From an uncultured virus (IMG/VR IMGVR_UViG_2061766007_000968) (taxonomy: Duplodnaviria; Heunggongvirae; Uroviricota; Caudoviricetes), in IMG/VR virus record IMGVR_UViG_2061766007_000968, positions 1-64,000 of that record: 64,000 nucleotides of DNA; one strand, 5' to 3'. Numbering within the stretch: position 1 is the stretch's first letter; each line of letters starts with the position of its first letter. Positions 2,903 through 62,063 of this stretch are shown piece after piece. The position numbers and the translations under genes are program-made. The notes beneath the pieces are model-generated. The model saw nothing but the letters and a program-made list of their open reading frames with translations. It was not told where the DNA came from and made no database searches.

Positions 2903-4138
2903 ATGAGTGTAAGCAACGGAAAGATAAGCGCCCGAATGGGTAAGAAGATCGGCGTTAACGGCGACGGCGACCTGCAAGTCGTATTTGGCACTTCGCAAAA
3001 GAGCCACGCTTGGTTTTTCACGACCGCCCCTATTAATATGTATTCAGCGCATAAGCCGTTTAGAAGTTCCACCATTTTTACAGATCACTATGATGATACT
3101 AACTCTCAGAGGTATGCGTGGCTTTCAGCGAACTCGTTCGGCGTGTCGGCGAATACAACTCTTAACCGTTCGATAGGCGCACAAGACCCTTATTGGAAAT
3201 ACGCAAGACCGAGAGGGAGTAGCTATAACGAACATTATCGTGCGGAGGATTTCGAGTTGTATAACCACAACGCGGTTTGCCCGATGTTGGCGACCAACAT
3301 CACTCTCAGCACCAACGGAGAGATTCACATAGACCTCAGCACCATTATTAATACATCAAGTAATGTTGAGATACCACTTCATTCTGTCATCCAATATCCA
3401 GACCAGGACTATGTTGGGTTTGTTCTGTGGGATATAACCAAGAAGGTTGGATACTATCTTGTTACAGATGTATATGTCTCTGATTTGTTCGACGGAATCC
3501 CATCTTCTTCTTGGCATGATTTCTATAAAAATATCGTCGAACTTCCATTCTCCGATGAGGATGATGTAGAATTCTTCTGGTGTACGAACCCTACTAATAC
3601 GATAGTTCACGACCAGGGAGGAGATTATCCGGCATTTGTAAAACTAACATCGGGGAATGTGACTGCGATCTCTCTTATGGCCTGTGACAGCACTCACGGT
3701 CATACCACATTTCACATACTTAAATTCAATGTGCATACGGATATTGGATTCGTGAATCTTAATACGATAATCGGTGGTGCGTGGAATGCAAACAGGACGA
3801 ATTTCACATTTAATTCATTCAGCACACGCCTTCAGTGTACTTATTCTTGGAGAACGAATGAGTCATATCCTGTCTCTTTCCGAATGGTGATAGGTTTGAA
3901 TACGACGACTGCGACGCTTTCCAGCAACAGAACTCTTAGCTCCGCGAACGCATCGCAATATTTCGACCTCGCCATGTCGAATGGATCAAAGACTTTCGAC
4001 ATCACGACGCTTCGAGATTTGTATGATTATGTCGTTCCGCTTTATCTCTATGTGAAACTTACAGACTCTGATGACGAGGTGCGGCTCGTAACTATAAACT
4101 ATAATGTGCAGACTGGAACATATACATATTCAACATAG
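2903..4138 (+). CDS. Hypothetical tail-associated protein, 411 aa
   Basis: Long ORF immediately after the tail fibre; INMYSAHKP and PRG..Y..HYR.EDF..YNHNA motifs recalled from Bacteroidales phage tail-distal genes; AT-rich. Confidence 0.7.
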   Translation: MSVSNGKISARMGKKIGVNGDGDLQVVFGTSQKSHAWFFTTAPINMYSAHKPFRSSTIFTDHYDDTNSQRYAWLSANSFGVSANTTLNRSIGAQDPYWKYARPRGSSYNEHYRAEDFELYNHNAVCPMLATNITLSTNGEIHIDLSTIINTSSNVEIPLHSVIQYPDQDYVGFVLWDITKKVGYYLVTDVYVSDLFDGIPSSSWHDFYKNIVELPFSDEDDVEFFWCTNPTNTIVHDQGGDYPAFVKLTSGNVTAISLMACDSTHGHTTFHILKFNVHTDIGFVNLNTIIGGAWNANRTNFTFNSFSTRLQCTYSWRTNESYPVSFRMVIGLNTTTATLSSNRTLSSANASQYFDLAMSNGSKTFDITTLRDLYDYVVPLYLYVKLTDSDDEVRLVTINYNVQTGTYTYST

Positions 4139-9139: not shown

Positions 9140-9377
9140 ATGGGCTACGCAGTCTATAACCTCAGAGGAGGTAATTATGGCCGGAAATCCGGCGAAATGG
9201 AGTTCGAAGAGGCCGCGCAGATGGTCGAAGAGGGGCTCGAGTGTATGCGTGAACTCGCCGAGGAGATGAAGGAGCAGTATGGCGAACGCCGTGGCTCCTA
9301 TGGCTCCAGGGGCGGGNNNNNNNNNNGACATGTACGGCGAACGCCGCATGCGCGACTCGAGAGGTCGTTATCGTTAG
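9140..9377 (+). CDS. Small YGERR-repeat protein (cassette gene 4), spans an assembly gap
   Basis: N-run at 9317-9326; after it a second frame reads MYGERRMRDSRGRYR* (TAG ending 9377), matching the YGERR repeat before the gap. Confidence 0.7.
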
Positions 9378-32611: not shown

Positions 32612-32694
32612 GGGGGAGACCGCGCGTACATGGAGGTCCGACGGGAACAGGCCAAAATATCGGACTACTGCGGGTTCGAGTCCCGCCTCCCCCG
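32612..32694 (+). ncRNA. tRNA-like element lacking a D-stem and a normal anticodon loop
   Basis: Acceptor GGGGGAG/CTCCCCC, T-arm GCGGG-TTCGAGT-CCCGC, 7-bp helix with an 18-nt loop. Confidence 0.6.
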
Positions 32695-39640: not shown

Positions 39641-39908
39641 ATACGCAGAATATGTTCTTGTCCCGAAAGAAGGGCTGTCCGGCATAGAGCCTGGTGCATA
39701 TGAAACGGCAGACGGGAAGACCTGTTTCGCCACATTCATTGCAGGCTGGGATAATCGAGACGGAGTGTACGACGAACAACTCGACCATATCTGTCAAAAG
39801 AGATGGAATTTGCCTTTTTCCTACATCAAGTCTCTTTGGATGGAGAGGTGTTGGGAGATTGAGGGGTATTGGTACTTATTGAATTTAAGGCTTAGTGTAA
39901 CAGGGTAA
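39621..39908 (+). CDS. Hypothetical protein
   Basis: 95 aa. Confidence 0.55.
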   Translation: MNTIKAKYAEYVLVPKEGLSGIEPGAYETADGKTCFATFIAGWDNRDGVYDEQLDHICQKRWNLPFSYIKSLWMERCWEIEGYWYLLNLRLSVTG

Positions 39909-39972
39909 TGGACCGGCCTAAACAACATACCGCTATAATGGCGGAGATCCCGTGAAAGCCGGGGGCCTTTCT

Positions 39973-40071
39973 GGATGGGTACCTCAGATGGTTAGAGGTC
40001 GGGAGGTGGCGAAATTGTGCTGAAATAAGCTCAGCCTTCCGAAGTCGCAGGTTCGAGTCCTGTCCCATCCG
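39973..40071 (+). ncRNA. tRNA-like RNA with an extended anticodon arm
   Basis: Acceptor GGATGGG/CCCATCC, D-arm CCTC-AGATGGTTA-GAGG, T-arm GCAGG-TTCGAGT-CCTGT; 32 nt where a 7-nt anticodon loop belongs. Confidence 0.75.
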
Positions 40072-40100
40072 CGAAATTTGTTTATATCGTAAATTCTTCT

Positions 40101-40210
40101 TATCTTTGCATAAACATTGTGTCGCAGACAATGAGTAGAAATTTAACACCCAGGACGAGTAGTGCAGAGCTGCGACCTCTGCGTGAAAGTTCTGGGATTG
40201 TTTTATAGAG
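40101..40210 (+). promoter_or_regulatory. Promoter plus kissing-loop leader, copy B
   Basis: TATCTTTG; loops GTCGCAG (40121-27) and CTGCGAC (40170-76); AGTAG/TGAA. Confidence 0.8.
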
Positions 40211-40801
40211 ATGGAAGAAATTTGGAAACCAATTGAAGGCTATGAAGGGAGATATGAGGCCGGAAATCTTGGGAACATAAAGAGCCTTAATTACCTTAAC
40301 ACTGGTATGGAAAAGGTAATGAAACCTTATTTGGTTGTGAGTAAGCACGGGAATGTCCCATATCTACAGGTCGATCTCTTTAAAAACGGCATAAGGCGTT
40401 CTCTCAAGGTACATGTTCTTGTATGTTCTGCATTTCATGGCGCACGGCCATCCGATATTGACGGAGACGATCATGTGGAAGCAATGCATTTGAACGGAAA
40501 TTCGTTAGACAACCGCGCGGTTAATCTCGCATGGGGAAGGCACATTGATAATGTCCGCGAGAAGAATTTTGTGGTAAAGCAAGTGGCGGCACAAAAGAAA
40601 AGATGGGAGAACGGAGAGTATGATTACCAAAAGAAGCCAGTAATGCAGTTTACTTTGGAAGGTGTTTTTGTTGCAAAATATGAGTCCGCATCATCCGCTC
40701 AAAGAGAGACGGGATGCAATCAAAGTGATATATCTAAACAGTGTCGCGGAGTAAGAAGATGGCCCGTTGGTGGCTTTAATTGGAAATTTGCTGATAAATA
40801 A
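40211..40801 (+). CDS. NUMOD4-HNH homing endonuclease
   Basis: EEIWKPIEGYEGRYE, VHVLV..AFHG, HLNGNSLDNRAVNLAW. Confidence 0.9.
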   Translation: MEEIWKPIEGYEGRYEAGNLGNIKSLNYLNTGMEKVMKPYLVVSKHGNVPYLQVDLFKNGIRRSLKVHVLVCSAFHGARPSDIDGDDHVEAMHLNGNSLDNRAVNLAWGRHIDNVREKNFVVKQVAAQKKRWENGEYDYQKKPVMQFTLEGVFVAKYESASSAQRETGCNQSDISKQCRGVRRWPVGGFNWKFADK

Positions 40802-40803
40802 TC

Positions 40804-42300
40804 ATGCAGTTACGCGATTATCAAAAGGAAATGCTTTCAGAGGCTCGTGAAGCGCTCAAGAAGTATAAACATATTATTGTTCAAGGGCCAACCGGAATGG
40901 GGAAGGGTGTCCTTATCGGTTCGATGGCATCGATGAGCAAGTATCGTGTATTAATTCTGGCGCATAGCGAGGAAATCCTGAAGCAAGATGCAGGTCACGC
41001 TCGCAAATGGGGTATAGAAGTCGCAGAGGTTTTTGCGAAAACTCGCAAGATGCCCGAGGCTCGCTGTGTTACAATGATGGCTCAGACGCTTCGGCAGAGG
41101 CTGAAGAAAGCGGAGTGGGCGAGATGGTTTGATGAGTTCGGGTTCATTATTTTGGACGAGTGCCACAGGGCCGAATTCGACTTTGTATTTGAGCAGCCAG
41201 GCGCGGACTGCAAATATGTCGTAGGGTTGTCCGCTTCTCCGGCAAGATATGGCCAAATGCGACAGCTCGGCTTGGACTATGGTGCAATCGTCATCGGCCC
41301 GCAGGTTTCCGAATTAATAGATCAAGGGTATCTGTGCAAGTGTCGGCTTTTCTCCTTGGACGCGCCGAACTTGGATGATGTTGAGTGGTCGTATGGACGC
41401 GGGGATTACAATCTCAGCCAGATGGCCGCGAAATTTAAATCAAGGGCGCGGTATGTCGGAGCAGTGGAGAACTACAAGCGCATCTGTCCAGGAGAGAAGA
41501 CTTTGGTGTTCTGCTGCAGCTCAGAGCAGACGATTGAATTGACGAAGGCTTTTTGTGAGGCCGGCATCGATGCCCGCTACTGCCTTTCCGGCGACTTTGA
41601 CGAGGACGACGATTACAGCGGTGATCGAAAGGATGTCGTTGATTCCTTCGCACGAGGAGATTTCCCAGTTTTGGTCAATTTTGGCCTATTCACGACCGGA
41701 ATCGACATTCCGGACATCAAGGTTGTGATGCTGATGTTCTCGACGACATCGCTGGTCAAGTACCTGCAGTGCCTTGGACGTGCCAGTCGGCCGGCTGAGG
41801 GCAAGAACGGAGAATTCATCTGCCTGGACTTTGGGCGCAACTATGAGCGGCTTGGCCGGTACGAGGATGACCGCATATGGTCCGTCTGGCACAATACCGG
41901 CGCTGGCGGCGGCGTCGCGCCTACGAAGGAATGCCCGCAGTGTGGAAGGCTGGTGCCGGTGTCATGGAAGCAGTGCCAGTTTTGCCAGTATGTCTGGCCG
42001 ACGCAGCAGGAAATATACAATGCCGAACTTAACGAAATCGTAGCGAGGGAAGATGAGGAATCTCTAGAATCTTATGTGGCGAGAAAGAAGTTAGAGGGGA
42101 AGTCGAATAACTGGATATTGGTACAGTGCTGCATAAAGAATCCGGATAATCAAAAGGAAGCCTTTATGAGAGCCATTGAGGTGCTAAGAACAAAGCACGG
42201 GGCGAACATCAGCCCGAAGTACTACTTCTTTTTTAAGAAAGAAATCCTAAGCAAGGTCAAGTTCAAGAAAAAAGACGAAGGCCCTTCTTTATTCAAATAA
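40804..42300 (+). CDS. SF2 DEAD/DEAH-like helicase with C-terminal zinc finger
   Basis: LRDYQ, PTGMGKG, DECH, SASP, TGIDIP, Q.LGR..R, CPQC..CQFC. Confidence 0.92.
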   Translation: MQLRDYQKEMLSEAREALKKYKHIIVQGPTGMGKGVLIGSMASMSKYRVLILAHSEEILKQDAGHARKWGIEVAEVFAKTRKMPEARCVTMMAQTLRQRLKKAEWARWFDEFGFIILDECHRAEFDFVFEQPGADCKYVVGLSASPARYGQMRQLGLDYGAIVIGPQVSELIDQGYLCKCRLFSLDAPNLDDVEWSYGRGDYNLSQMAAKFKSRARYVGAVENYKRICPGEKTLVFCCSSEQTIELTKAFCEAGIDARYCLSGDFDEDDDYSGDRKDVVDSFARGDFPVLVNFGLFTTGIDIPDIKVVMLMFSTTSLVKYLQCLGRASRPAEGKNGEFICLDFGRNYERLGRYEDDRIWSVWHNTGAGGGVAPTKECPQCGRLVPVSWKQCQFCQYVWPTQQEIYNAELNEIVAREDEESLESYVARKKLEGKSNNWILVQCCIKNPDNQKEAFMRAIEVLRTKHGANISPKYYFFFKKEILSKVKFKKKDEGPSLFK

Positions 42301-42307
42301 TTCTTCT

Positions 42308-42421
42308 TATCTTTGCATACACACTCGTGTTGCAGACGAGGAAGAGAAATATAAGAGCCCCGAATGAGTAGGAAGGTGCTGCAACCACCTTTTGAAAATT
42401 CGGGGATTCGTTTTTTTTGAT
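42308..42421 (+). promoter_or_regulatory. Promoter plus kissing-loop leader, copy C
   Basis: TATCTTTG; loops GTTGCAG (42329-35) and CTGCAAC (42379-85); AGTAG/TGAA. Confidence 0.8.
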
Positions 42422-43012
42422 ATGGAAGAAATTTGGAAGGATGTAAAGGGGTACGAAGGAGAATATCTGGTTTCAAATCATCAGCGGGTAAAAAGAGTAA
42501 GAGACGGCTATATATTGCAGCCTGTTATATCAACAGCAGGATACAAGGTAATCGGGCTTCGGCACAGACAGTTTCAATTGTCAAGAATTATTGCTACTGC
42601 GTTTATACCGAACCCTGATAATAAACCGCAAATTGACCACATAGATGGAAACCCTTTGAATAATAGTATATCAAATTTGAGGTGGGCAACAAGTAAAGAA
42701 AATATCAATAACCCAATCACGAAAATTCGTCAAAAGGCGGCTATGAGAAAGAAGTGGAAGGATGGAGTTTACGATGGTAATAAACGCAGTATTTTTCAAT
42801 ACACAAAGGCTGGAACTTTTATTAGAGAATGGAATAGCATAAAGGATGCAGCAGACTTTCTCGGTAAAAATAGGGCGACAATTATAAATGCTTTATCTCA
42901 CCCAGATAAGAGAAAGACAATGCATGGATATATCTGGTGCTACGCTGACGACACTAAGCGCATAAAAGAAATCGAATCATTGCGCGAGGACTCCTCGCAG
43001 AAACTGTTTTAG
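42422..43012 (+). CDS. NUMOD4-HNH homing endonuclease
   Basis: EEIWKDVKGYEGEYLVSN, AFIPNP.NKPQIDHIDGNPLNN..SNLRW. Confidence 0.9.
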   Translation: MEEIWKDVKGYEGEYLVSNHQRVKRVRDGYILQPVISTAGYKVIGLRHRQFQLSRIIATAFIPNPDNKPQIDHIDGNPLNNSISNLRWATSKENINNPITKIRQKAAMRKKWKDGVYDGNKRSIFQYTKAGTFIREWNSIKDAADFLGKNRATIINALSHPDKRKTMHGYIWCYADDTKRIKEIESLREDSSQKLF

Positions 43013-43912: not shown

Positions 43913-44140
43913 ATGAGTGAACAAGTAAACCACCCATCTCACTACTTGAAGAACGGTAGGGAGTGCATAGATGTAATGATAGAAAAGTTCGGCATCCAGG
44001 CAGTAATTAACTTCTGCGAGTGCAACCAGTTCAAATACGAGTGGCGTGCGGGGCTGAAGGAAGGCAATTCTGCGGAGCAGGATTACCAAAAAGCGGAATG
44101 GTACAAAAGGAAAGCCGCAGAACTTCGCGCTTCAAAATAA
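43913..44140 (+). CDS. DUF3310-like protein
   Basis: VNHPSHY..ECID..KY.WR.G.K..D..KA.WY. Confidence 0.85.
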   Translation: MSEQVNHPSHYLKNGRECIDVMIEKFGIQAVINFCECNQFKYEWRAGLKEGNSAEQDYQKAEWYKRKAAELRASK

Positions 44141-44343
44141 TTTTGCTATCTTTGCAAAAACCGTAATGTTATGGAAAAAGAATGGATTAGCCCGTATGTC
44201 CACCCGAATGTTGGTATGCAGGTAAGGATGTGGATTCGAAACAAGCGCTCCGGAAAGAGTTCTTACAGAAAGGCGACTTGGGACGGAACGCATTGGTCTC
44301 TTGAGAAAATATCAACCGACTACGAGTTGGTGGGTTGGCACGA

Positions 44344-44739
44344 ATGATTATAGAAACTCCAGAGCAGCCGAAAAAGCGCCGGCATTCGCAGCCGGAAATG
44401 AAACTCCAGGCTGAATGCTTTCGCATGGCGTGGAACGATTTTCCTATTACAAGAAAACTTCTTTTTCATGTTGAAAACGAACTGAATTTTGCCGGGGACA
44501 ATTCCATTCGCGGGGCGATTCGCAGATCAGAAGGGATTGTAAAGGGCGTGTCTGACTTGATTCTGCTTATACCACGCCGGGACTGGCACGGTCTAATGAT
44601 CGAACTTAAAACAGAGGATGGCCGGCAGTCACTTGCCCAGAAAGAATGGCAGTCACTTGTCGAGGCGCAGGGATACCGTTACGAAATAATCCGAACTTTG
44701 GATGATTTTCGATCTCTTCTCTGGGATTATCTCGGATAA
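44344..44739 (+). CDS. VRR-NUC nuclease
   Basis: E..LQ, EG..KGVSDL, IELK...GRQS..Q..W. Confidence 0.85.
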   Translation: MIIETPEQPKKRRHSQPEMKLQAECFRMAWNDFPITRKLLFHVENELNFAGDNSIRGAIRRSEGIVKGVSDLILLIPRRDWHGLMIELKTEDGRQSLAQKEWQSLVEAQGYRYEIIRTLDDFRSLLWDYLG

Positions 44740-44757
44740 ATTCTTATCTTTGTCATT

Positions 44758-45369
44758 ATGCCTGGGATTTTACCGATGCGCCCGAAATCGGGCAAATTTG
44801 ACCTCAGACCGGAAGAGATGGATGGTCTGTCGTATTATGTTTTGTCTGGATGTCCCCGTGAGGTAGCATTTCTCAAGTTTATGCGACCAGACTTTATTGG
44901 TTCAAAAGCCCAGACGGTCATCAAGAATGCCGTGTCGCAATTCTTTGCGATGAAGGATGTGAAGGATTACTTGGACGCATATAGGGCAACCATAGAAGAA
45001 TTATTGAGCCCATCTAAAAGGGAGGACAAACCCAGCGGCACTCTTGAGGAGCGGAAGGCGAGGGCAAAGACGAAGATAGTCGAGTTCGCAATGGAGTTGG
45101 CGGACAATATAGAAAACGCAAGTGACAAGGAGTTCGTTTTAAAGATGGCAGACAAGGCCGGACTTCTCGACCAGGAAGAACAGGTCGAAGAGCAGCCTAG
45201 GAGGTATCTCCCTGTAAGCTGCCAGTCCGGGTGCGCGTATAGGATGTTCTGCGAGGAGAGCGCCGATGATATGTGTCAATACTGCAAGTATCACGCATTC
45301 GGAGAGGAGAATGGGGTTCACTTCGAAAAAACAGAAATTCTCGATGTTCCTATTGCTAATTCGGAATAA
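44758..45369 (+). CDS. Hypothetical protein, possible terminase small subunit
   Basis: Helical HTH-like N-terminus and Cys-rich tail (RYLP..C..C.Y); upstream of the large terminase. Confidence 0.45.
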   Translation: MPGILPMRPKSGKFDLRPEEMDGLSYYVLSGCPREVAFLKFMRPDFIGSKAQTVIKNAVSQFFAMKDVKDYLDAYRATIEELLSPSKREDKPSGTLEERKARAKTKIVEFAMELADNIENASDKEFVLKMADKAGLLDQEEQVEEQPRRYLPVSCQSGCAYRMFCEESADDMCQYCKYHAFGEENGVHFEKTEILDVPIANSE

Positions 45370-45374
45370 TTTCG

Positions 45375-45482
45375 TATCTTTGCTTTCGCCAAGTACGAGA
45401 TGGCGAAATGGACACATAGAGGCCCGGATAAGTAGGCGTTTGCTCGTACCACTCGCTGAACATTCGGGCACTTTTTGTAAAA
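45375..45482 (+). promoter_or_regulatory. Promoter plus kissing-loop leader, copy D
   Basis: TATCTTTG; loops GTACGAG (45393-99) and CTCGTAC (45443-49); AGTAG/TGAA. Confidence 0.75.
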
Positions 45483-46257
45483 ATGGGAAAGATAAATGAC
45501 CTTACTGGTCGCAGATTTGGCCGACTTATAGCCCTTGAGTATATGGGGAGAAGAAACGGGAGGACATTGTGGCGGTGCGCGTGTGATTGCGGGAAGGAAA
45601 CTATCGTTGGATATTCCAGTCTTTTGAGCGGTGGCACGCGCTCTTGCGGATGTCTTGAAAAAGAAAATTTAGCATTTATTCAGAAGAATTCAGCCAACCG
45701 GGTATCTGCATCGAAAGATTTTCCCGGAAGTCTTAATAAACATCCCTTATACGGGACATGGTCTAGCATGTTGACTAGGTGCTATAATCAAAACAGCATT
45801 TCATATAGGAATTATGGCGGGCNNNNNNNNNNNNNNNNNNNNNNNNNNNNNNNNNNNGTTTCAGCATTTTGTAGATGATGTGGGAGAAAGACCGTCCTCG
45901 AACCATACGATTGACAGGATAGATGTCAATGGGGATTATTCCCCAGATAATTGTCGGTGGGCAACGGTCGATCAGCAGTCAAACAATAGACGCGACTCTG
46001 TCATTGTTTATTATAATGGAAATAGAGTACCCCTTACGCATGTTTGCACTGCACTTGGCCTGAATTATAGTAGGGTTTCGCATCAGATTCAGAAAGGGTT
46101 TGACATAAATGCGATTGTAGAACATGGCGGAATCGATTTTCGCCGAAAGGGGTTTAGTGGGAACACGGAAAAGTATAAGAATTTTAATAGAAATATTACT
46201 ATCTTTGTTCCACAACTAAACGCTGGCACGGAACTTGAAGAAGAAAATGTCGGATAG
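45483..46257 (+). CDS. HNH-type homing endonuclease (same family as 35347), spans an assembly gap
   Basis: DLTGRRFGRL..CDCG..SCGC..W.SM..RC..YGG [N-run] F..DVGERP..TIDRIDVNGDYSPDNCRWAT; the two track ORFs are one gene. Confidence 0.8.
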
Positions 46258-46333
46258 TTACCATAACTTTGCTTTCGGGCGGTGAGGCTTTCGAAGCGCA
46301 GCCGCCCATTTTGATGAAACTTTTTTATAAAAT

Positions 46334-46651
46334 ATGGAGATTAAAGGAAAAATTACAGCAATCCCGCCGGAAAAGACCGGGGTGTCAACAAGAGGCCCTT
46401 GGCGGAAGGTCTTTATTGTCGTGGAGTACGATGGAGGACAATATCCGAAGCAGGTCATCTTGTCGAACATGAACAAGGCGGAAGATTTTTCTCGGCTGAA
46501 GATCGGAGATGTGTGTACATTCAAGTTTGACGGATCTGTCAACGAAAGGAATGGTAACTACTATATGGATTTGAATTGTTGGTCTTGGAGGCTAGAGTCC
46601 GGTCAGCCGCAGACAGCCCCTCCTGCGCAGGGCGGGAGTCAACCGTTTTAA
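46334..46651 (+). CDS. DUF3127-like OB-fold ssDNA-binding protein
   Basis: MEIKGKI..G.S....W.K..QYPK..L.CW, C-terminal PF. Confidence 0.8.
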   Translation: MEIKGKITAIPPEKTGVSTRGPWRKVFIVVEYDGGQYPKQVILSNMNKAEDFSRLKIGDVCTFKFDGSVNERNGNYYMDLNCWSWRLESGQPQTAPPAQGGSQPF

Positions 46652-46718
46652 AATACGCCGTGAGGCGGTTTCCCATAGTTTTAGTGTTTAGTTGATGACT
46701 GCTGGAAAGACAGCTGAC

Positions 46719-46824
46719 GGAGGAACGGCCCGGTTGGTCTGGGCGAGAAGCGGATGGTGAAATCTGTCGTGTTGCAAGCACGCAGTCCGCGAGACAGGCG
46801 GGGGTCCGATTCCCCCTTCCTCTG
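46719..46824 (+). ncRNA. tRNA-like RNA with an extended anticodon arm
   Basis: Acceptor GGAGGAA/TTCCTCT, D-arm GCCC-GGTTGGTCT-GGGC, T-arm GGGGG-TCCGATT-CCCCC; long bulged central arm. Confidence 0.65.
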
Positions 46825-46923
46825 CTAACCGCAGGGATGCGCTACGGGCGAAATAATGAGTGAAAGCTTTTTTTTTCGAACATAATTTATCCTCCCCGGG
46901 CTGCCCGACCGGGGATTTGTAAT

Positions 46924-47157
46924 ATGAAACACGCACATAATTTTGATGACTTGACGGGGAGACGGTTTTGGAAAGTCGTCGTTATTGAATTTGAAGGTCG
47001 CATGGATAATGGCATGAGCCTTTGGCGGTGCAGGTGCGATTGCGGTCGAGAGTTTATCGCTGTCGGGGCAAACCTTAAAAGCGGAGCGACAAAATCGTGC
47101 GGGTGTCTTCGTCGAGACTCGATGAAAGGGAATCATAGAAACGCTGTGAAGCGGTAA
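46924..47157 (+). CDS. Stand-alone N-terminal domain of the DLTGRRF/CDCG HNH family (no nuclease domain)
   Basis: DLTGRRF..W.C.CDCG..L.SG.T.SCGC followed by a stop. Confidence 0.65.
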   Translation: MKHAHNFDDLTGRRFWKVVVIEFEGRMDNGMSLWRCRCDCGREFIAVGANLKSGATKSCGCLRRDSMKGNHRNAVKR

Positions 47158-47215
47158 GGGCGGCAAGACTACTTTTGGTTCAGGATACTCTTATACGCGC
47201 CGCCCTTTTTTATTT
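47157..47215 (+). terminator. Terminator-like stem with a large loop
   Basis: agggcggc / gccgccct followed by a T-tract. Confidence 0.55.
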
Positions 47216-47242
47216 TCTACGAATTTTATATATTTGCGGTGT

Positions 47243-48994
47243 ATGTTCCGACTTCGAAAAAATCATGCACCATTCCCGCCGCTTTACGAGCATGTAGAGC
47301 GGAAATTGCCTACTGTCAAGGACAAAGGTTGGGATAAGGTTGGTGGTTTTACGCTAAGAGAGAAGCGAGATTTCATTCCACAGCCAGGACTTCAGGAGAG
47401 GTTTATACAGTGTGATAGCAATATCATTTTTCTGTGCGGAGCCGCGACGATGGGAAAGACATATGCCATGCTCATGAAGTTTCTCGGCGGAATGGATAAG
47501 CCCGGGTTTGCGGGCCGATTCATATCGATGCGTCTAGCGGACTCAAAAAAAGGTACATCCATCTATCGTGACGCGATGGAGTTGCTCGGAAACTACGCAA
47601 ACTGCGAGGTGTCTTCTAGCGACTCTCCAACATTTGCCTGGTCGAAGTATAACTCGGCCGTGCAGCTTATACACAGCAATTTCAATATTGATAATCCGAC
47701 GGAGTGGGATGATTTCAAAGAGCTGGCCAAGAAAAATCAGGCAAGCGAAATACAAATAGATGAAGGCTCCGACATGCCGTTTCGGATGTTCACATACTGG
47801 ATGTCTCGTAATCGTGATTCATCTGGAATGAAGCCGCAAATCACGATGTCCTTCAACCCAGAGTACGCGCACTGGACTACTACATTTCTTCTTAACGGAG
47901 GATATATTGATCCAATGACATATTATATCAAGCCGGAAATGAACGGCAGGACAAGATATGTCTATTTCAAAGGCGATGAAGTTAACGATGTTCTTTGGGG
48001 AGATACACCGGAAGAGGTTGCTGAGGCCGCAGGAATAGTTCTTTCGGAGGCGGACATCAAGGCCGGGCTTACGGCGAAGGACATGGTGAAGAGCTTCACG
48101 ATGTTTACCGGAGAAGCGTCAGACAACTTAAAGTTAGTTTCCGCGACCGGAGGCGGTTCTGTCGCGAACCTGCACGCAACTGGAGCTACGCAGCGCAACA
48201 TCCTTAAGGGCGCATATTTTGGCCCAGTAGACAATGAGCGCTCGCCTATCACGAAGCAGATGATTGTGGAGTTGCCGAACAACCCAGTCAACGACGACGA
48301 GAACATGTACGCCACGATGGATATCTCTGGCGCGGCTTCGTCAAAGGATCCGGATGTCTGTCAGATGGTGATATGGAAGGGCCTTCGATTCATTGCAATC
48401 GAGTCGTATCATGGCAACATGAAGGATATTGTTCCATGGATAGAGTCTATGCTATCAAAGTATGGCGTACCTGTTGAGAACTTTGCTTTCGATGCTACAG
48501 GTATGGGTTTCTTCCTTAAGGACTATGTCAAGGGCTATCCGGTTACGGCGAACAAGACCGCCATCCAGGAATACGACGAGAATGGCAACCCGGTCACGCT
48601 CGAGCAATACTTCAATGTGAGAAGTCAACTTCTCGGGAAGATGAAGGTTCTTATAGAGACAGGCCGGATAAGCACAAGCATGGATCTCGACACTAGGATT
48701 CCGTATGGTAAGAAGGGGGAACTTCGGACAATTCGAGACATCTTGTTCGATGCTATCGACCTGTTTGTCTGCACAACAAAGAACAAGCGCATCTATTATC
48801 TGTCAAAGGACGAATACAAGGCCAGGCATCAGAAAAACTCTCCAGACCTCATGGACTGCCTATGCCTCCGGGCCGTGTTTGAACTTGACGCCCGGCCAAA
48901 GAAGGCTCCGCCTCAAGAAATTGAGGACGATGCATACGACAATATTTTTACGGACTATCTCGGCGGACGCGTCGGTGCGGTAGTCTGGGTTTAA
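47243..48994 (+). CDS. terL: Terminase large subunit
   Basis: PQPG.Q, GAATMGKT Walker A, IDEG Walker B, SFNP, RNase H-like DISG..D, FDATG.G, SPDLMD; precedes the portal. Confidence 0.88.
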   Translation: MFRLRKNHAPFPPLYEHVERKLPTVKDKGWDKVGGFTLREKRDFIPQPGLQERFIQCDSNIIFLCGAATMGKTYAMLMKFLGGMDKPGFAGRFISMRLADSKKGTSIYRDAMELLGNYANCEVSSSDSPTFAWSKYNSAVQLIHSNFNIDNPTEWDDFKELAKKNQASEIQIDEGSDMPFRMFTYWMSRNRDSSGMKPQITMSFNPEYAHWTTTFLLNGGYIDPMTYYIKPEMNGRTRYVYFKGDEVNDVLWGDTPEEVAEAAGIVLSEADIKAGLTAKDMVKSFTMFTGEASDNLKLVSATGGGSVANLHATGATQRNILKGAYFGPVDNERSPITKQMIVELPNNPVNDDENMYATMDISGAASSKDPDVCQMVIWKGLRFIAIESYHGNMKDIVPWIESMLSKYGVPVENFAFDATGMGFFLKDYVKGYPVTANKTAIQEYDENGNPVTLEQYFNVRSQLLGKMKVLIETGRISTSMDLDTRIPYGKKGELRTIRDILFDAIDLFVCTTKNKRIYYLSKDEYKARHQKNSPDLMDCLCLRAVFELDARPKKAPPQEIEDDAYDNIFTDYLGGRVGAVVWV

Positions 48995-49017
48995 TATAAA
49001 AATCGCGATTTTAACCT

Positions 49018-59600: not shown

Positions 59601-62063
59601 CGCATCAGGTTCATGAAGGATTTCAAGAAAGGTTATGATGACTTGAACAAGTATCTGTCCGAAGAGGGTGCCTTGTCCGAGCAGAGTTGGATTATGCTCG
59701 GACGCGGAATGTCGCTTGGCATGAGCGCGGCAGAACAGGCTCGCGCTGCAAAGGAACTGTCAGATTGGTATACCGATCAAATCAATAAGGTCGTGAAGGA
59801 GATGCAAAGCAAGGGTCTGGTTGGAAAGACTGTCACGGAAATGCTGAGCCATCAGATTACTGGAGAATCCAACCGATCCAAGATGCTGCGGGATTACCAG
59901 GCTCTTCTTCAATCTTTGTGGGATGCTAAAACGGACTTTGACACCACGCAGGCGGAAAAGAATATTGAGGACGCTATTAAGAAGATTACGGATGACATCA
60001 AAAGGTCGGAGGTCGCTCGAGATTTCTATAAGAATATCCTTGATTTAACCGGCGACGAGAATCTCGCAGAGAATCTTACCGTCAGCGTCTACGGCGGTAT
60101 CGGAAAGGATTTCAAGGACAGAATCCAAGAGCAACTTTATCGTGCGCTCAACGAAATCGATCCAAGTGGAATCAACAAAGACCTAATGTCAACCCTTCTT
60201 GGAGATATAGCCATTTTCGATATAAAAGACATTCAGGAGAACATCGAAAAACTGCCTCCAAAAGTCAAGGAAATGTTCGAGAAAATTCTCGAGGAGAATC
60301 AGAAATATGACGCAGAATGGCTTGTCGATTTCGAGAAGACATACGCGAAGGCAATGACATACCAAGAGAGGGTAGACAGACTAAACGCGCAGCGGTTGCA
60401 AAAGGAAAAAGAGGCTGCGTCTATGGGCAAATCTCCCGAAGAAACCGCGAGGGTCACAGAATACTACAATCGCGAAATTGCCAAGGTTCAACTTGAGGCG
60501 ATGAAGGATACCTATACATGGACAAAGGCATTCGAGGATTTGGAGAACGTATCTGACAGGACGCTTGAGAACCTAATCAGCTTAATCGATGAGTATATCG
60601 AAAAGAACGGGAAGTACTTAGAACCCCAGCAGCTCCGCGAACTTGTGCGCTCCAAGGAAAGAGCCAAGCAGCAGAAACTTGAGCGTAACTCAATAAAGGG
60701 AATTATTTCTGCTTTGCGCGATTATAATAATTTCGCTAAAATAAAGAAGGTTCTGGACAAGGCATTTCTCGACAGCGGGGAAGACTACAATAAGGTTCTT
60801 GATGACCAGCAGGAGGCTCTCCATAGATTGAGCGAGGCATATGCCGAGGCTATGAATGAGTTGAGCCAGTATGTTTCAAGCGTAAAGGATTTGCTCAATG
60901 TCTTCTCCAGTGATGCCGACGCATCGTTCTGGGGCCAACAGCTTGACGATATCTCCAAGACATTTGCAGGTCTTGGCAAGGCTGGTATTGGAATTGCTCA
61001 ACTTGCTATGGGTCAAATTACCCCTCAGGCAATTATGAACACTATTACTGGACTCTCTGATGTTGTTTCAAGCATTTTTAGCGCTATTAAGCGGGCTAAT
61101 ATTAGAAAAATCAACAAGGACATCGAAGACCAGCAGCGATTGATTGACGGACTCGAGAAATCCTACGATCGCCTCGAGAAAGCAATGGAGAAGGCTTTCG
61201 GCTCTGACTATATCGAGAACTACAACAAGCAGCTTGACAATCTCCAAGCGAAAGTCGACGCTTACAACAAACAGGCAGACCTCGAGGAAAGTAAGGGTAA
61301 GAAGGCAGATGCGGACAAGGCCCGTGAGTACCGAGAAGCAGCTGCAGAGGCGGAGGAGCAGATTGCCGAGATGGGTGACCAGCTCTCTCGTTATTTCACC
61401 GAAACCGATTTGTCATCCGCTGCCAAGGACTTCGCGAATTCCTGGATCGAGGCGTATAAGGAGTTCGGCAGTACGACGGATGCCATGCGCGAGAAGTTCC
61501 AGGATATGATTCAGTCTATGATTGAGCAGTCTCTCGGAGCAAAAATCATGCAGACCATTCTGCAGCCTCTCTTTGACTCCATCGACGAGATGGCTCAAAC
61601 CGGAGGCGAACTGACATCGCAGGAAATTGCTCAAATTAGCCAGATGGCGCCGGAGTACATCGACAAGATTAACAATGCCATGACCAACCTGATGAACTCC
61701 CTTGCCGCTTCCGGATACAATGTCCGTCAGGGTCTCGGTCAGTTCACGGGCATCTCCCGCGACATCGCCGGAGCGAGCGAAGAGTCCATCAATGGTCTCG
61801 CCGCCGGAATCAACACACAAAACTTCTATATGTCCCTCATCAGCCAGAATGTCGCAGCGATTTTGGCATCGATGACCGGACAGGAGGTAAACGGAGTCGC
61901 TGGTGCTGCCACGCCGACGGATCCGTACAAGGATGCCGTGTTGGAGCATATGAGCATGATACCTCTGATGCACGAGGACATGTACGCAATCCGGTCGATG
62001 TTGGAGAAGGTAATCCGCCCGAATGGAACAACGGCGACGCATTATGTCGCGACAAGGTCATAG
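56631..62063 (+). CDS. Tape measure protein
   Basis: 1810 aa, coiled-coil rich; LAYGQV....LRGQELRQFTEAGIPL..T..GG.F tape-measure motif. Confidence 0.92.
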   Translation: MAVEIPVYVDILGGINDAIKKQLPEAMKSMQSAMDSNPLVANISIGNVDQANKELQKLNDWYRKLENEDWEKIGSAIDLSPYVNQAIMELRRLEEELDEIQELRKMEGGSGDFQFAEEYRRVNDQINSVLASIRAMQGAQSQLNGTLNNSGFQQYISSLTETNEELRQMREYYSELESYSDKYASSINAIRDRMAGLVGQWNAMTKAERESIEGSDIITRYKNERKELEEVAHTLDEIYSKEQRRQQGLQRIAQKVKTEDIILKSNVKTIDILEKKERILSERLSKARIGSTKYNQLKKDLEDVRKELEQLDGQAGKTDSKLASLIKNSIRLFALHTASQFIRSVREVTAEFELQRVALGSIIQDTERAEGLFRQIKAAAIESPFEIKDLVSYTKQLSAYRIETDKLFDVTMRLADISAGLGVDMSRLVLAYGQVRAASVLRGQELRQFTEAGIPLVDELAKKFTKLRGETVKTGEVFQLISERAVPFRMIEEIFEDMTSAGGMFYKMQEKQAKTLAGQWANLKDAVSIMYDEIGNTDTVHNAMETLIRDARNIFKNWRTIADVIKIVGNSVLAYISISKLATLQIKLQEYAEAKLTVVESEREKGMKRMITTIIGETAAEKVSTAAKQAHLFATNKLAAANTVLGKTFWSLTAAMLSNPFGAIAVAVGALVGLFSILSRKARDVNKDIDAANASISSLNKSRTETQRLIDSYEELSKKQSLTVDESKKLKDISSELATTFPKASEGIDKNTNSLALNIEKLKEYNKQAQEATKVGLQAQIKTDEREMRKNQRQIDKLSRDLIRGYGTNKYNRTARVLSPIALPFSAKQKAEMNEELTELIKKNEQYAASIKEMQDAIEGLNKKTGDAEESMTLWQKKLVEFNSRIDESGKAIQVLSPDQIEGYSRLDDVLEDLAKKYKEQATQVEVLEKAKEGKNAEEAAELAISLRLATARKNLTKEILDYYHAFYLTQKNNNGRGYQKDAFITLMENRIRFMKDFKKGYDDLNKYLSEEGALSEQSWIMLGRGMSLGMSAAEQARAAKELSDWYTDQINKVVKEMQSKGLVGKTVTEMLSHQITGESNRSKMLRDYQALLQSLWDAKTDFDTTQAEKNIEDAIKKITDDIKRSEVARDFYKNILDLTGDENLAENLTVSVYGGIGKDFKDRIQEQLYRALNEIDPSGINKDLMSTLLGDIAIFDIKDIQENIEKLPPKVKEMFEKILEENQKYDAEWLVDFEKTYAKAMTYQERVDRLNAQRLQKEKEAASMGKSPEETARVTEYYNREIAKVQLEAMKDTYTWTKAFEDLENVSDRTLENLISLIDEYIEKNGKYLEPQQLRELVRSKERAKQQKLERNSIKGIISALRDYNNFAKIKKVLDKAFLDSGEDYNKVLDDQQEALHRLSEAYAEAMNELSQYVSSVKDLLNVFSSDADASFWGQQLDDISKTFAGLGKAGIGIAQLAMGQITPQAIMNTITGLSDVVSSIFSAIKRANIRKINKDIEDQQRLIDGLEKSYDRLEKAMEKAFGSDYIENYNKQLDNLQAKVDAYNKQADLEESKGKKADADKAREYREAAAEAEEQIAEMGDQLSRYFTETDLSSAAKDFANSWIEAYKEFGSTTDAMREKFQDMIQSMIEQSLGAKIMQTILQPLFDSIDEMAQTGGELTSQEIAQISQMAPEYIDKINNAMTNLMNSLAASGYNVRQGLGQFTGISRDIAGASEESINGLAAGINTQNFYMSLISQNVAAILASMTGQEVNGVAGAATPTDPYKDAVLEHMSMIPLMHEDMYAIRSMLEKVIRPNGTTATHYVATRS

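Follow-up and report, generated by a model that had tools for sequence, protein, structure and literature searches.

A conserved tRNA-shaped RNA gene with an enlarged central arm, a candidate processing element that appears unable to decode, in a rumen phage

The stretch of DNA analysed here (64,000 nucleotides, hereafter the window) makes up nearly the whole of the 67,223-base IMG/VR virus record IMGVR_UViG_2061766007_000968 and carries on its + strand a tRNA-like RNA gene of 106 nt (46719..46824), referred to below as copy 2, which is the subject of this study. The phage is of the siphovirus type, with genes for terminase (47234-48994), portal, major head protein and tape measure, and the DNA runs containing it came from bovine and sheep gut. 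Copy 2 lies after a DUF3127/SSB-like gene and before an open reading frame (ORF) of 77 aa (46924..47157, + strand), which is followed by the terminase gene. We examined 24 ORFs in the interval from 37.8 to 62 kb, and this ORF is one of four HNH-family genes found there, the others being 40211-40801, 42392-43012 and 45483-46257; the last of these is broken by a run of N at 45823-45857, and a further such run is found at 9317-9326. A blastn search with 44000-49000 against 50,697 phage records gave no match. In what follows G000 denotes this phage, G001-G005 are related genomes and L numbers are loci obtained from scans.

The acceptor, D and T arms of copy 2 are intact and its central arm is elongated. 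The acceptor stem GGAGGAA/TTCCTCT (46719-25 / 46817-23, with a G1.U72 pair), the D arm (46728-44) and the T arm GGGGG-TCCGATT-CCCCC (46800-16) frame a central arm (46750..46790) that is built of an outer helix GCGGA/TCCGC (46750-54 / 46786-90), a 9-nt bulge on the 5' side, TGGTGAAAT (46755..46763), which equals the position 8-16 word of Leu-type tRNAs, an inner 7-bp helix with a bulged U, CTG.CGTG/CACGCAG (46764-71 / 46779-85), and a 7-nt loop TTGCAAG (46772..46778) resembling a Cys anticodon loop, of which TTGCAA is self-complementary. The original prediction had described these arms, helices, bulge and loop at the same coordinates, and had attributed the insert TGGCGAAAT to a first tRNA-like RNA, copy 1, where we located it at 40007-15. 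The minimum-energy structure computed by RNAfold for 46719-46824 is exactly this cloverleaf with a two-part central arm, its D stem being drawn with 6 bp. Our own cloverleaf scan recovered copies 1 and 2 with their D arms, a weak test in that 20 shuffled windows yielded 0-2 such matches each. Of the parts of a canonical tRNA, copy 2 has the 7-bp acceptor stem, a D arm with GG, and a 5-bp T stem with a 7-nt T loop; it has no 5-bp anticodon stem carrying a 7-nt loop immediately beneath the D stem. It thereby combines intact determinants for RNase P and RNase Z with a non-decoding anticodon arm, as a tRNA-like processing element does.

Two metagenome loci carrying the element were reached through the 77-aa ORF. 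At L312 (identical in L343 and L348) lies a 106-nt ortholog of copy 2 that matches it at 97/106 positions and aligns without gaps, whereas the surroundings are gap-rich and less similar: 69% identity over 80 nt upstream, 64% over 99 nt downstream and 68% in the ORF. All 28 pairs of the fold form in both sequences. Four of the nine differences make up two compensatory pairs altered on both sides, one in the inner helix (C46768-G46782, which is T-A in L312) and one in the T stem (G-C to A-T); the remaining differences are confined to the bulged U, variable region and T loop (TCCGATT in copy 2, TTCGAGC in L312), and none of the nine breaks a stem. Contigs from four DNA runs were compared with the window, and those of runs X5 and X7 span 46719-46824 without indels inside. 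The original prediction of a tRNA-like fold rather than random decay is borne out by this comparison. It had named two observations that would count against it, a bulge motif varying among homologs and a dominant competing CTGTC/GACAG pairing; in L312 the TGGTGAAAT 9-mer and the TTGCAAG loop are 100% kept, and the competing pairing is lost (CTGAT/GAAAG). Because copy 2 is far better kept than its flanks, both stem changes are compensatory and the rival pairing is lost, copy 2 is, judged by its pattern of sequence change, a genuine selected RNA gene and not a product of decay. Further scans added no other ortholog: a pattern built on the D arm of copy 2 hit 3 loci, with the ortholog only in L343, a T-arm pattern hit 13 loci, none homologous, and a flank-motif pattern hit 16 loci, of which only L348 shares a contig with L343; two 22-mers gave no match against genome contigs.

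Several observations bear on decoding. ARAGORN called 0 tRNAs in the window, and at the gathering score no Rfam family was assigned to copy 2. The Cys-like loop is pushed 7 bp outward by the extra helix, beyond the 9-nt bulge, and extra bases flank it on both sides (17 nt and 7 nt), so that no 5-bp stem with a 7-nt loop could be regained by one excision. The discriminator is G and position 3:70 is A-U. At L311 the DUF3127 gene is followed by a free-standing homologous hairpin (GCGG-TGGTG-TAT-CTG, loop TTGCAAG, CAG-CGCCA-TCGC), in which the TGGTG stretch is base-paired; after it comes a 75-nt tRNA-like having an acceptor, a T arm and one long arm, and no D arm. In G001 the positional counterpart of copy 2, judged by eye, is a 71-nt tRNA (60182-60254; 43.6 bits with the Rfam tRNA model) that shares the flanking hairpins of copy 2 and has a GAGG tetraloop in place of the anticodon loop. 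Since the tRNA finders are silent, the loop is displaced and the L311 hairpin lies outside the tRNA-like body, we infer that copy 2 is no working tRNA and cannot read codons.

Two special tRNA types were considered separately and rejected. At relaxed threshold the only Rfam family matched by either copy is tRNA-Sec (RF01852), whose gathering score is 47, whereas copy 2 reaches 21.3 bits (E 0.068) and copy 1 reaches 22.4 bits; copy 2 has no UCA loop, and the 6-bp D stem drawn by RNAfold is the sole likeness. An intron-containing tRNA is contradicted by the extra bases on both sides of the loop, by the lack of any Rfam match, including to the group I intron, and by the layout at L311.

The 9-mer TGGYGAAAT of the bulge occurs three times in the 67,223-base record, always on the + strand and 82-204 nt upstream of an HNH-family gene (three of the four such genes); 1.5 occurrences are expected in the window, and 20/100 shuffles reach three. 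Pattern scans for the 9-mer with a T loop within 25-55 nt found more than 118 plus more than 123 viral stretches. Among the 244 matches listed, 234 lie in a tRNA called by ARAGORN (185 of them tRNA-Leu), beginning at position 8 in 220 cases and at position 9 in 14, and none of the 10 outside called tRNAs has the architecture of copy 2. The 9-mer is thus, by this census, the standard U8-to-U16 word of Leu-type tRNAs, and of some others. In both copies it follows a helix strand directly, as U8 follows the acceptor stem, and the match to real phage tRNA 5' ends extends 3-5 nt into that preceding strand; 14-mers identical to phage tRNA 5' ends were found at five loci for copy 1 and at one for copy 2. 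A global alignment of the two inserts is equalled or beaten by 5/5000 shuffles, and by 764/5000 once the 9-mer is removed. The argument that two independent scaffolds carry the same insert motif did not survive these results: the 9-mer is an ordinary tRNA word, and the rest of the inserts align no better than shuffles do. Readings of the 9-mer as a K-turn, T-loop, GNRA receptor, pseudoknot or D-arm-like element, considered by eye only, found no support.

The third 9-mer site (45401) lies in the 5' leader of HNH gene 45483, inside a stem GTACGAG/CTCGTAC around A-TGGCGAAAT... (45393..45449, + strand). The stem covaries, being GAGCGAG/CTCGCTC in L256 and L277 and GGACGAG/CTCGTCC in L278; the 9-mer itself is not kept in these orthologs, as L256 and L277 have 4 extra bases and L278 differs. 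The whole leader (45393-45482; also L256 ~3395-3480, L277 and L278) comes after a TATCTTTG promoter box, and a second long-range pairing (GCCCG...CGGGC; AAGGCTT...AAGCCTT; GCCCTG...CAGGGC) crosses the 7-bp stem ahead of a T-rich run; these crossed pairings may form a pseudoknot or an attenuator. In an unrelated phage (L239, ~90-240) a tRNA-like has TGGTGAAAT right after its D arm, opening a central region of 55 nt; this tRNA-like is laid out differently and may be a further one with an enlarged arm.

Copy 2 belongs to a wider set. An acceptor and T-arm scan found three tRNA-likes in the window (32612-32694, 39973-40072 and 46719-46824) and more in G001 and G002. Copy 1 (39973..40072, + strand) has the central arm CGGGAGG / TGGCGAAAT... 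/ CCTTCCG and is followed by a promoter-like TATCTTTG at 40101 and by the NUMOD4/HNH_3 gene 40211-40801. Its outer halves are both 96% identical to L250:11688-11802, where the 57-nt central hairpin is unrelated. The acceptor and T arm of copy 1 are common to L250/L340, L336, L333/L335/L339 and L334, with differing central arms (a GCGA tetraloop in L334), and also to L337 and L341, which are ordinary tRNA-Ser(GGA) genes. More distant relatives (G003-G005) encode normal tRNAs for Met, Asn, Phe, Leu and Ile, and the tRNA-like set probably descends from an ordinary phage tRNA cluster. With introns allowed, ARAGORN calls copy 1 a 'tRNA-Leu(cag), 25-nt intron' with C at position 37 and a non-canonical intron site. 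The third tRNA-like (32612..32694, + strand) has a 7-bp central stem, an 18-nt loop and a reduced D arm; its acceptor is GGGGGAG/CTCCCCC and its T arm GCGGG-TTCGAGT-CCCGC, and it lies in a divergent intergenic region with a promoter-like TAACTTTG downstream (32718).

A joint covariance model of both copies had been proposed as a check. As MAFFT misaligned the central arms of copies 1 and 2, the model was built from copy 2 and L312 only. Its own members reach 135-136 bits with it, against 40.7 for the L250 element and 39.2 for copy 1, and the other tRNA-likes and tRNAs lie in the range 14-32 (21.2 for the third tRNA-like); copy 1 thus scores no better than the L250 tRNA-like, which lacks the motif.

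Other features of this set may be recorded here. G001 encodes a tmRNA (59623-59979, or L261:223-579; 67.9 bits with Rfam against a required 47) that has on either side a tRNA whose anticodon arm is abnormal; one of these two, at 60182-60254, has G3.U70 and A73 besides its GAGG tetraloop; it may accept alanine yet be unable to decode. A conserved non-coding element of ~86 nt (element E) without a Rfam match is shared by the window (39885-39970) and the minus strand of L250 (11604-11687) at 82% identity, its hairpin differing on both strands (CCGC-TATAAT-GGCGG vs CCGGA-TTGAG-TTCCGG). It precedes copy 1 in G000 and follows the tRNA-like in L250 and in the contig of run X11, in which copy 1 (8 differences, no gaps), element E and ~614 letters to the helicase leave no room for an HNH gene.

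The ORF beside copy 2 had been described as HNH-related. It does match phrog_374, 'HNH endonucleases' (E 2e-19), in profile positions 192-259 of 617 only, which leaves out the nuclease part, and it has no Pfam family match, to an HNH family or otherwise. The description therefore stands as regards the family, whereas the protein, with orthologs of 80 and 83 aa, is a stand-alone N-terminal Cys-rich domain of DNA-binding type and lacks the nuclease domain of a free-standing homing endonuclease. Matches to the Pfam CapR domain PF21817 stay below its cut-off of 24.2 bits, at 21.0 bits for the paralog at 45483 and 18.6 bits for the L312 ORF. CapR is described as a DNA-binding domain rich in Cys that phage homing endonucleases also contain and that a Vibrio satellite has domesticated as a repressor (PMC8096241).

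Copy 2 and the ORF (~580 nt together) are replaced by ~84 nt in L246, the terminase of which is 89% identical, and G001 has no room for them. In G000 the pair comes after the DUF3127 gene and before the terminase, in L311 after the DUF3127 gene and before a minus-strand gene, and in L312 after an HTH-like ORF, the downstream gene being different in each of the three contexts. Presence and absence among relatives and varied contexts, as expected of a homing cassette, are thus both found for copy 2 with its ORF, and the comparison indicates that the 77-aa zinc-ribbon ORF is inherited with copy 2 and that the two move as a single indel cassette. Among remoter homologs of both zinc-ribbon genes (19 + 19 loci), none has a tRNA-like upstream. 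In the contig of run X5 the segment 45217-46223, with the third 9-mer site and its HNH gene, is missing and copy 2 is retained.

Small hairpins surround copy 2, all on the + strand. Close behind the DUF3127/SSB-like gene, on the left side of the cassette, lies CGCC-GTGA-GGCG with a GNRA-type loop (46656..46667), which has counterparts in L312 (CCGCA-GTGA-TGCGG) and before G001 60182 (GCC-GTGA-GGC). A leader hairpin GCTG-GAAAGA-CAGC (46701..46714) ends 4 nt before the 5' end of copy 2; in L312 it is GATG-GAGAGA-CATC, with one pair altered on both sides, and a hairpin ends 4-5 nt before the 5' end in all three tRNA-likes of the window as well as in L311, L312, G001 60182 and G002 44962. Downstream by 6 nt is CGCA-GGGA-TGCG (46830..46841), again with a GNRA-type loop, represented by CGCA-GTGA-TGCG in L311 and after G001 60182 and by CGCA-GCGA-TGCG in L312. 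Finally, CCCCGG...CCGGGG (46894..46914) stands ~10 nt before the ORF start; it is kept in L311 and L312 and is also present before G001 60182. Neither copy 1 nor copy 2 has an intrinsic terminator, a sigma-70-like promoter or a TAnnTTTG promoter on the + strand between itself and the gene upstream. TAnnTTTG promoters do occur within ~30 nt downstream of copy 1 and of the third tRNA-like. We take TAnnTTTG to be the -7 promoter box of Bacteroidota; the + strand has 32 copies of this motif and the - strand 10, frequently right before genes. A near-identical promoter region ATTCTTCTTATCTTTGCATA precedes two NUMOD4/HNH_3 genes (40083-40110 and 42297-42325) and is 86% identical to a stretch at a different position in G002, which suggests mobile HNH cassettes with a promoter of their own.

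The reading we favour, with a probability of roughly 40%, is that copy 2 is a tRNA-shaped element for RNase P and RNase Z processing that no longer decodes, similar to tRNA punctuation and mascRNA. RNase P, RNase Z and the CCA-adding enzyme read the acceptor stem, T arm and D arm half of a tRNA; this half is retained in copy 2, and a long bulged hairpin has taken the place of the anticodon arm. Copy 2 would be co-transcribed with the upstream gene and excised from the longer transcript by RNase P and RNase Z. Through excision the upstream mRNA would acquire its 3' end, with the small leader hairpin as its last element, and the downstream ORF would be uncoupled. Copy 2 is one of a set of tRNA-shaped RNAs in a clade of rumen phages with promoters that look Bacteroidota-type, and its freely varying central arm may have acquired tRNA-derived pieces, namely an acceptor-like helix with the position 8-16 word and a Cys-type anticodon hairpin. 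A processing role is favoured because the recognised parts are kept and the decoding part is variable, no terminator or promoter was found between copies 1 and 2 and the genes upstream of them, a leader hairpin is present and promoters follow copy 1 and the third tRNA-like.

A number of points weigh against this reading. There is no RNA run among the 20 runs listed for this DNA. The fold energy of copy 2 is no better than chance (z = -1.2; 22/200 shuffles fold equally well), the covariation shuffle control, with two distinct orthologous sequences, is not significant (129/500), and an inverted repeat in DNA would be just as likely to show the compensatory change seen in the inner helix. A co-oriented gene upstream of the third tRNA-like may be lacking, and in G002 (44962 and 48972), L250 and G001 (66632) a TTTT comes after the hairpin that precedes the tRNA-like, a pattern resembling termination ahead of the tRNA-like and not read-through. 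Moreover, if copy 2 were a processing signal and nothing else, the strict conservation of the 9-mer and of the TTGCAAG loop, which recurs in L311, would be left unexplained; three of the alternatives, a decoy, an endonuclease footprint and an operator, do address this conservation.

As a decoy, copy 2 would act in trans: a nested 'mini-tRNA' on a stable tRNA body, made of the acceptor-like helix, the position 8-16 word and the Cys-type anticodon hairpin (Leu-like in copy 1), would occupy a tRNA-cutting defence nuclease or a tRNA-binding enzyme and never the ribosome. In 234/244 of the matches listed the 9-mer starts at position 8 or 9 of a tRNA and is thus a genuine tRNA word. This fits such a mimic, as do its continuation into the preceding helix strand as 14-mers (five loci for copy 1, one for copy 2) and the retention of the TTGCAAG loop in G000, L312 and L311 despite differing surrounding helices; phage tRNAs that counter tRNA-targeting defences are documented in accounts of such systems (PMC10264068, PMC11464382, PMC11555353). 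We nevertheless consider a mimic unlikely. The motif is absent from most tRNA-likes of the clade, the 71-nt G001 counterpart has only a tetraloop, and D-arm-like folding of the 9-mer has no structural support. By the usual identity rules, aminoacylation identity is not conserved (G3.U70 and A73 in G001, A3-U70 and G73 in copy 2), and this analysis named no defence system directed at tRNA-Cys or tRNA-Leu. A jobless RNA is the gist of another account, in which the central arm is what remains after HNH cassettes cut and rebuilt the anticodon arm of a tRNA gene; the 9-mer would then be a remnant or copy of the nuclease's target in tRNA genes, conserved at the DNA level for cleavage immunity or homing homology. 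All three 9-mers stand on the + strand 82-204 nt ahead of HNH-family genes (three of four among the 24 ORFs), the third 9-mer site with HNH gene 45483 and copy 2 with its ORF are both indels against relatives, and the central arm has been exchanged within an otherwise 96%-identical scaffold. Such a footprint is hard to reconcile with the compensatory change in the T stem and with a tRNA-like that is, as a whole, far better kept than the adjacent ORF; in addition, the X11 contig has copy 1 and no room for the HNH gene, the 9-mer is not kept in the third-site orthologs, and the ORF beside copy 2 has no nuclease domain, which together make it rather improbable.

Less plausible still is that the TTGCAAG inverted repeat (as DNA) or a structured leader (as RNA) is the binding site of the downstream zinc-ribbon protein, a domesticated homing-endonuclease DNA-binding domain regulating itself or guarding the site. 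The repeat and the ORF co-occur in G000, L312 and L311 and are both absent at G001 60182, and in L311 the repeat lies outside the tRNA-like and is still upstream of the ORF; GATGGYGAAAT is found upstream of both genes with this domain, the sub-cut-off PF21817 matches (paralog 45483, L312 ORF) point weakly the same way, and CapR, a repressor of phage genes that is related to homing endonucleases and binds DNA as a stand-alone protein, offers a described precedent (PMC8096241). An operator would, however, leave the intact acceptor, D and T arms and the T-stem covariation unexplained; no promoter motif was found at or after the repeat, the 77-aa protein itself has no Pfam match, and copy 1 has as its neighbour an HNH protein of another kind (NUMOD4/HNH_3). 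A decaying tRNA pseudogene or chance fold, for which the z of only -1.2 and the 0-2 D-arm matches per shuffled window in the loose cloverleaf scan could be cited, is very improbable given 92% identity against 64-69% in the flanks, the absence of indels (also in the X5 and X7 contigs) and 0/9 stem-breaking substitutions. We give least credence to a working tRNA-Cys(GCA) with the insert removed as an intron or tolerated. U73 is a Cys identity element, and the discriminator of copy 2 is G. TTGCAAG does provide U33, GCA and A37, as in the tRNA-Cys genes of the collected loci, the outer central helix presumably resembles the anticodon stem of bacterial tRNA-Cys, and ARAGORN reads copy 1 as an intron-containing tRNA-Leu. 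The latter solution has C37 and a non-canonical intron site, and in copy 2 the extra 17 nt and 7 nt around the loop, the lack of an Rfam intron family and the position of the L311 hairpin outside the tRNA body all speak against splicing. A more speculative idea, which we regard as doubtful, is a 'tRNA within a tRNA': an armless mini-tRNA displayed on a processing-competent body and moving with a domesticated DNA-binding protein, as a mobile RNA-protein module that baits or blocks factors of the host or of rival phages recognising tRNAs or tRNA genes.

If the processing reading is true, a clade of rumen phages kept the tRNA shape after abandoning decoding and would provide a bacterial-virus counterpart of mascRNA-type processing signals, as well as a natural 'tRNA scaffold' with an exchangeable middle arm. 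It would also be a warning for annotation, as tRNA finders miss such genes (0 found here), and would offer a tractable system for asking why homing-endonuclease-type and tRNA(-like) genes travel together.

A search of the open-access literature found no paper on phage tRNA-likes with enlarged anticodon arms, and copy 2 is best set beside several better-known systems. Phage tRNA clusters are accompanied by free-standing homing endonucleases, such as SegB of T4 and the F-Tfl enzymes of T5. The likeness lies in HNH-type genes next to tRNA(-like) genes, in their presence or absence among relatives and in rearrangements centred on the anticodon arm; the difference is that the neighbour of copy 2 has no nuclease domain, and that copy 2 has an intact fold under purifying selection and is neither split nor dead. 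The T4 'species 1 and 2', small stable RNAs of unknown function among the genes of a tRNA cluster, are comparable, by description only, as small phage RNAs among tRNA genes. With the tRNA-like domain of tmRNA, of which the relative G001 encodes a real example, copy 2 shares an acceptor and T arm and a long helix in place of the anticodon arm; tmRNA was rejected as an identity for copy 2, which has no match to the Rfam tmRNA model RF00023, no G3.U70 (its position 3:70 being A-U) and no tag reading frame.

YrlA, as presented in PMC4201824, is likewise a non-decoding RNA: it imitates the acceptor, D and T arms, tRNA enzymes accept it as a substrate, and phage-encoded examples exist too; according to the same account its 'acceptor' is a closed stem-loop, both termini of the RNA are located in the Ro-binding stem and its gene adjoins Ro60. 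A YrlA or Y RNA identity was discarded for copy 2, which has no RF02553 match; TROVE is absent from the 67-kb record (controls matched), and the Rfam YrlA model matches the T arm only, in the third tRNA-like only (12.7 bits). Like the CapR repressor of the Vibrio satellite PLE, the 77-aa protein is a stand-alone Cys-rich domain that otherwise occurs at the N-terminus of phage homing endonucleases, whereas Pfam matches in the 77-aa ORF family are below cut-off or absent and CapR is portrayed without a linked RNA (PMC8096241). The closest parallel to the favoured reading is mascRNA of MALAT1, described as a tRNA-shaped element in a longer transcript with a non-functional anticodon arm, cut by RNase P and RNase Z (PMC8457004). 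It is eukaryotic and nuclear, and by comparison the would-be protecting structure of copy 2 is a simple hairpin and its central arm is longer, not shorter. Both have a tRNA fold with a non-decoding anticodon arm, and if copy 2 is likewise embedded in a transcript and processed, the likeness would extend to the manner in which excision of mascRNA creates the 3' end of the upstream RNA, guarded there by a nearby structure (PMC8457004).

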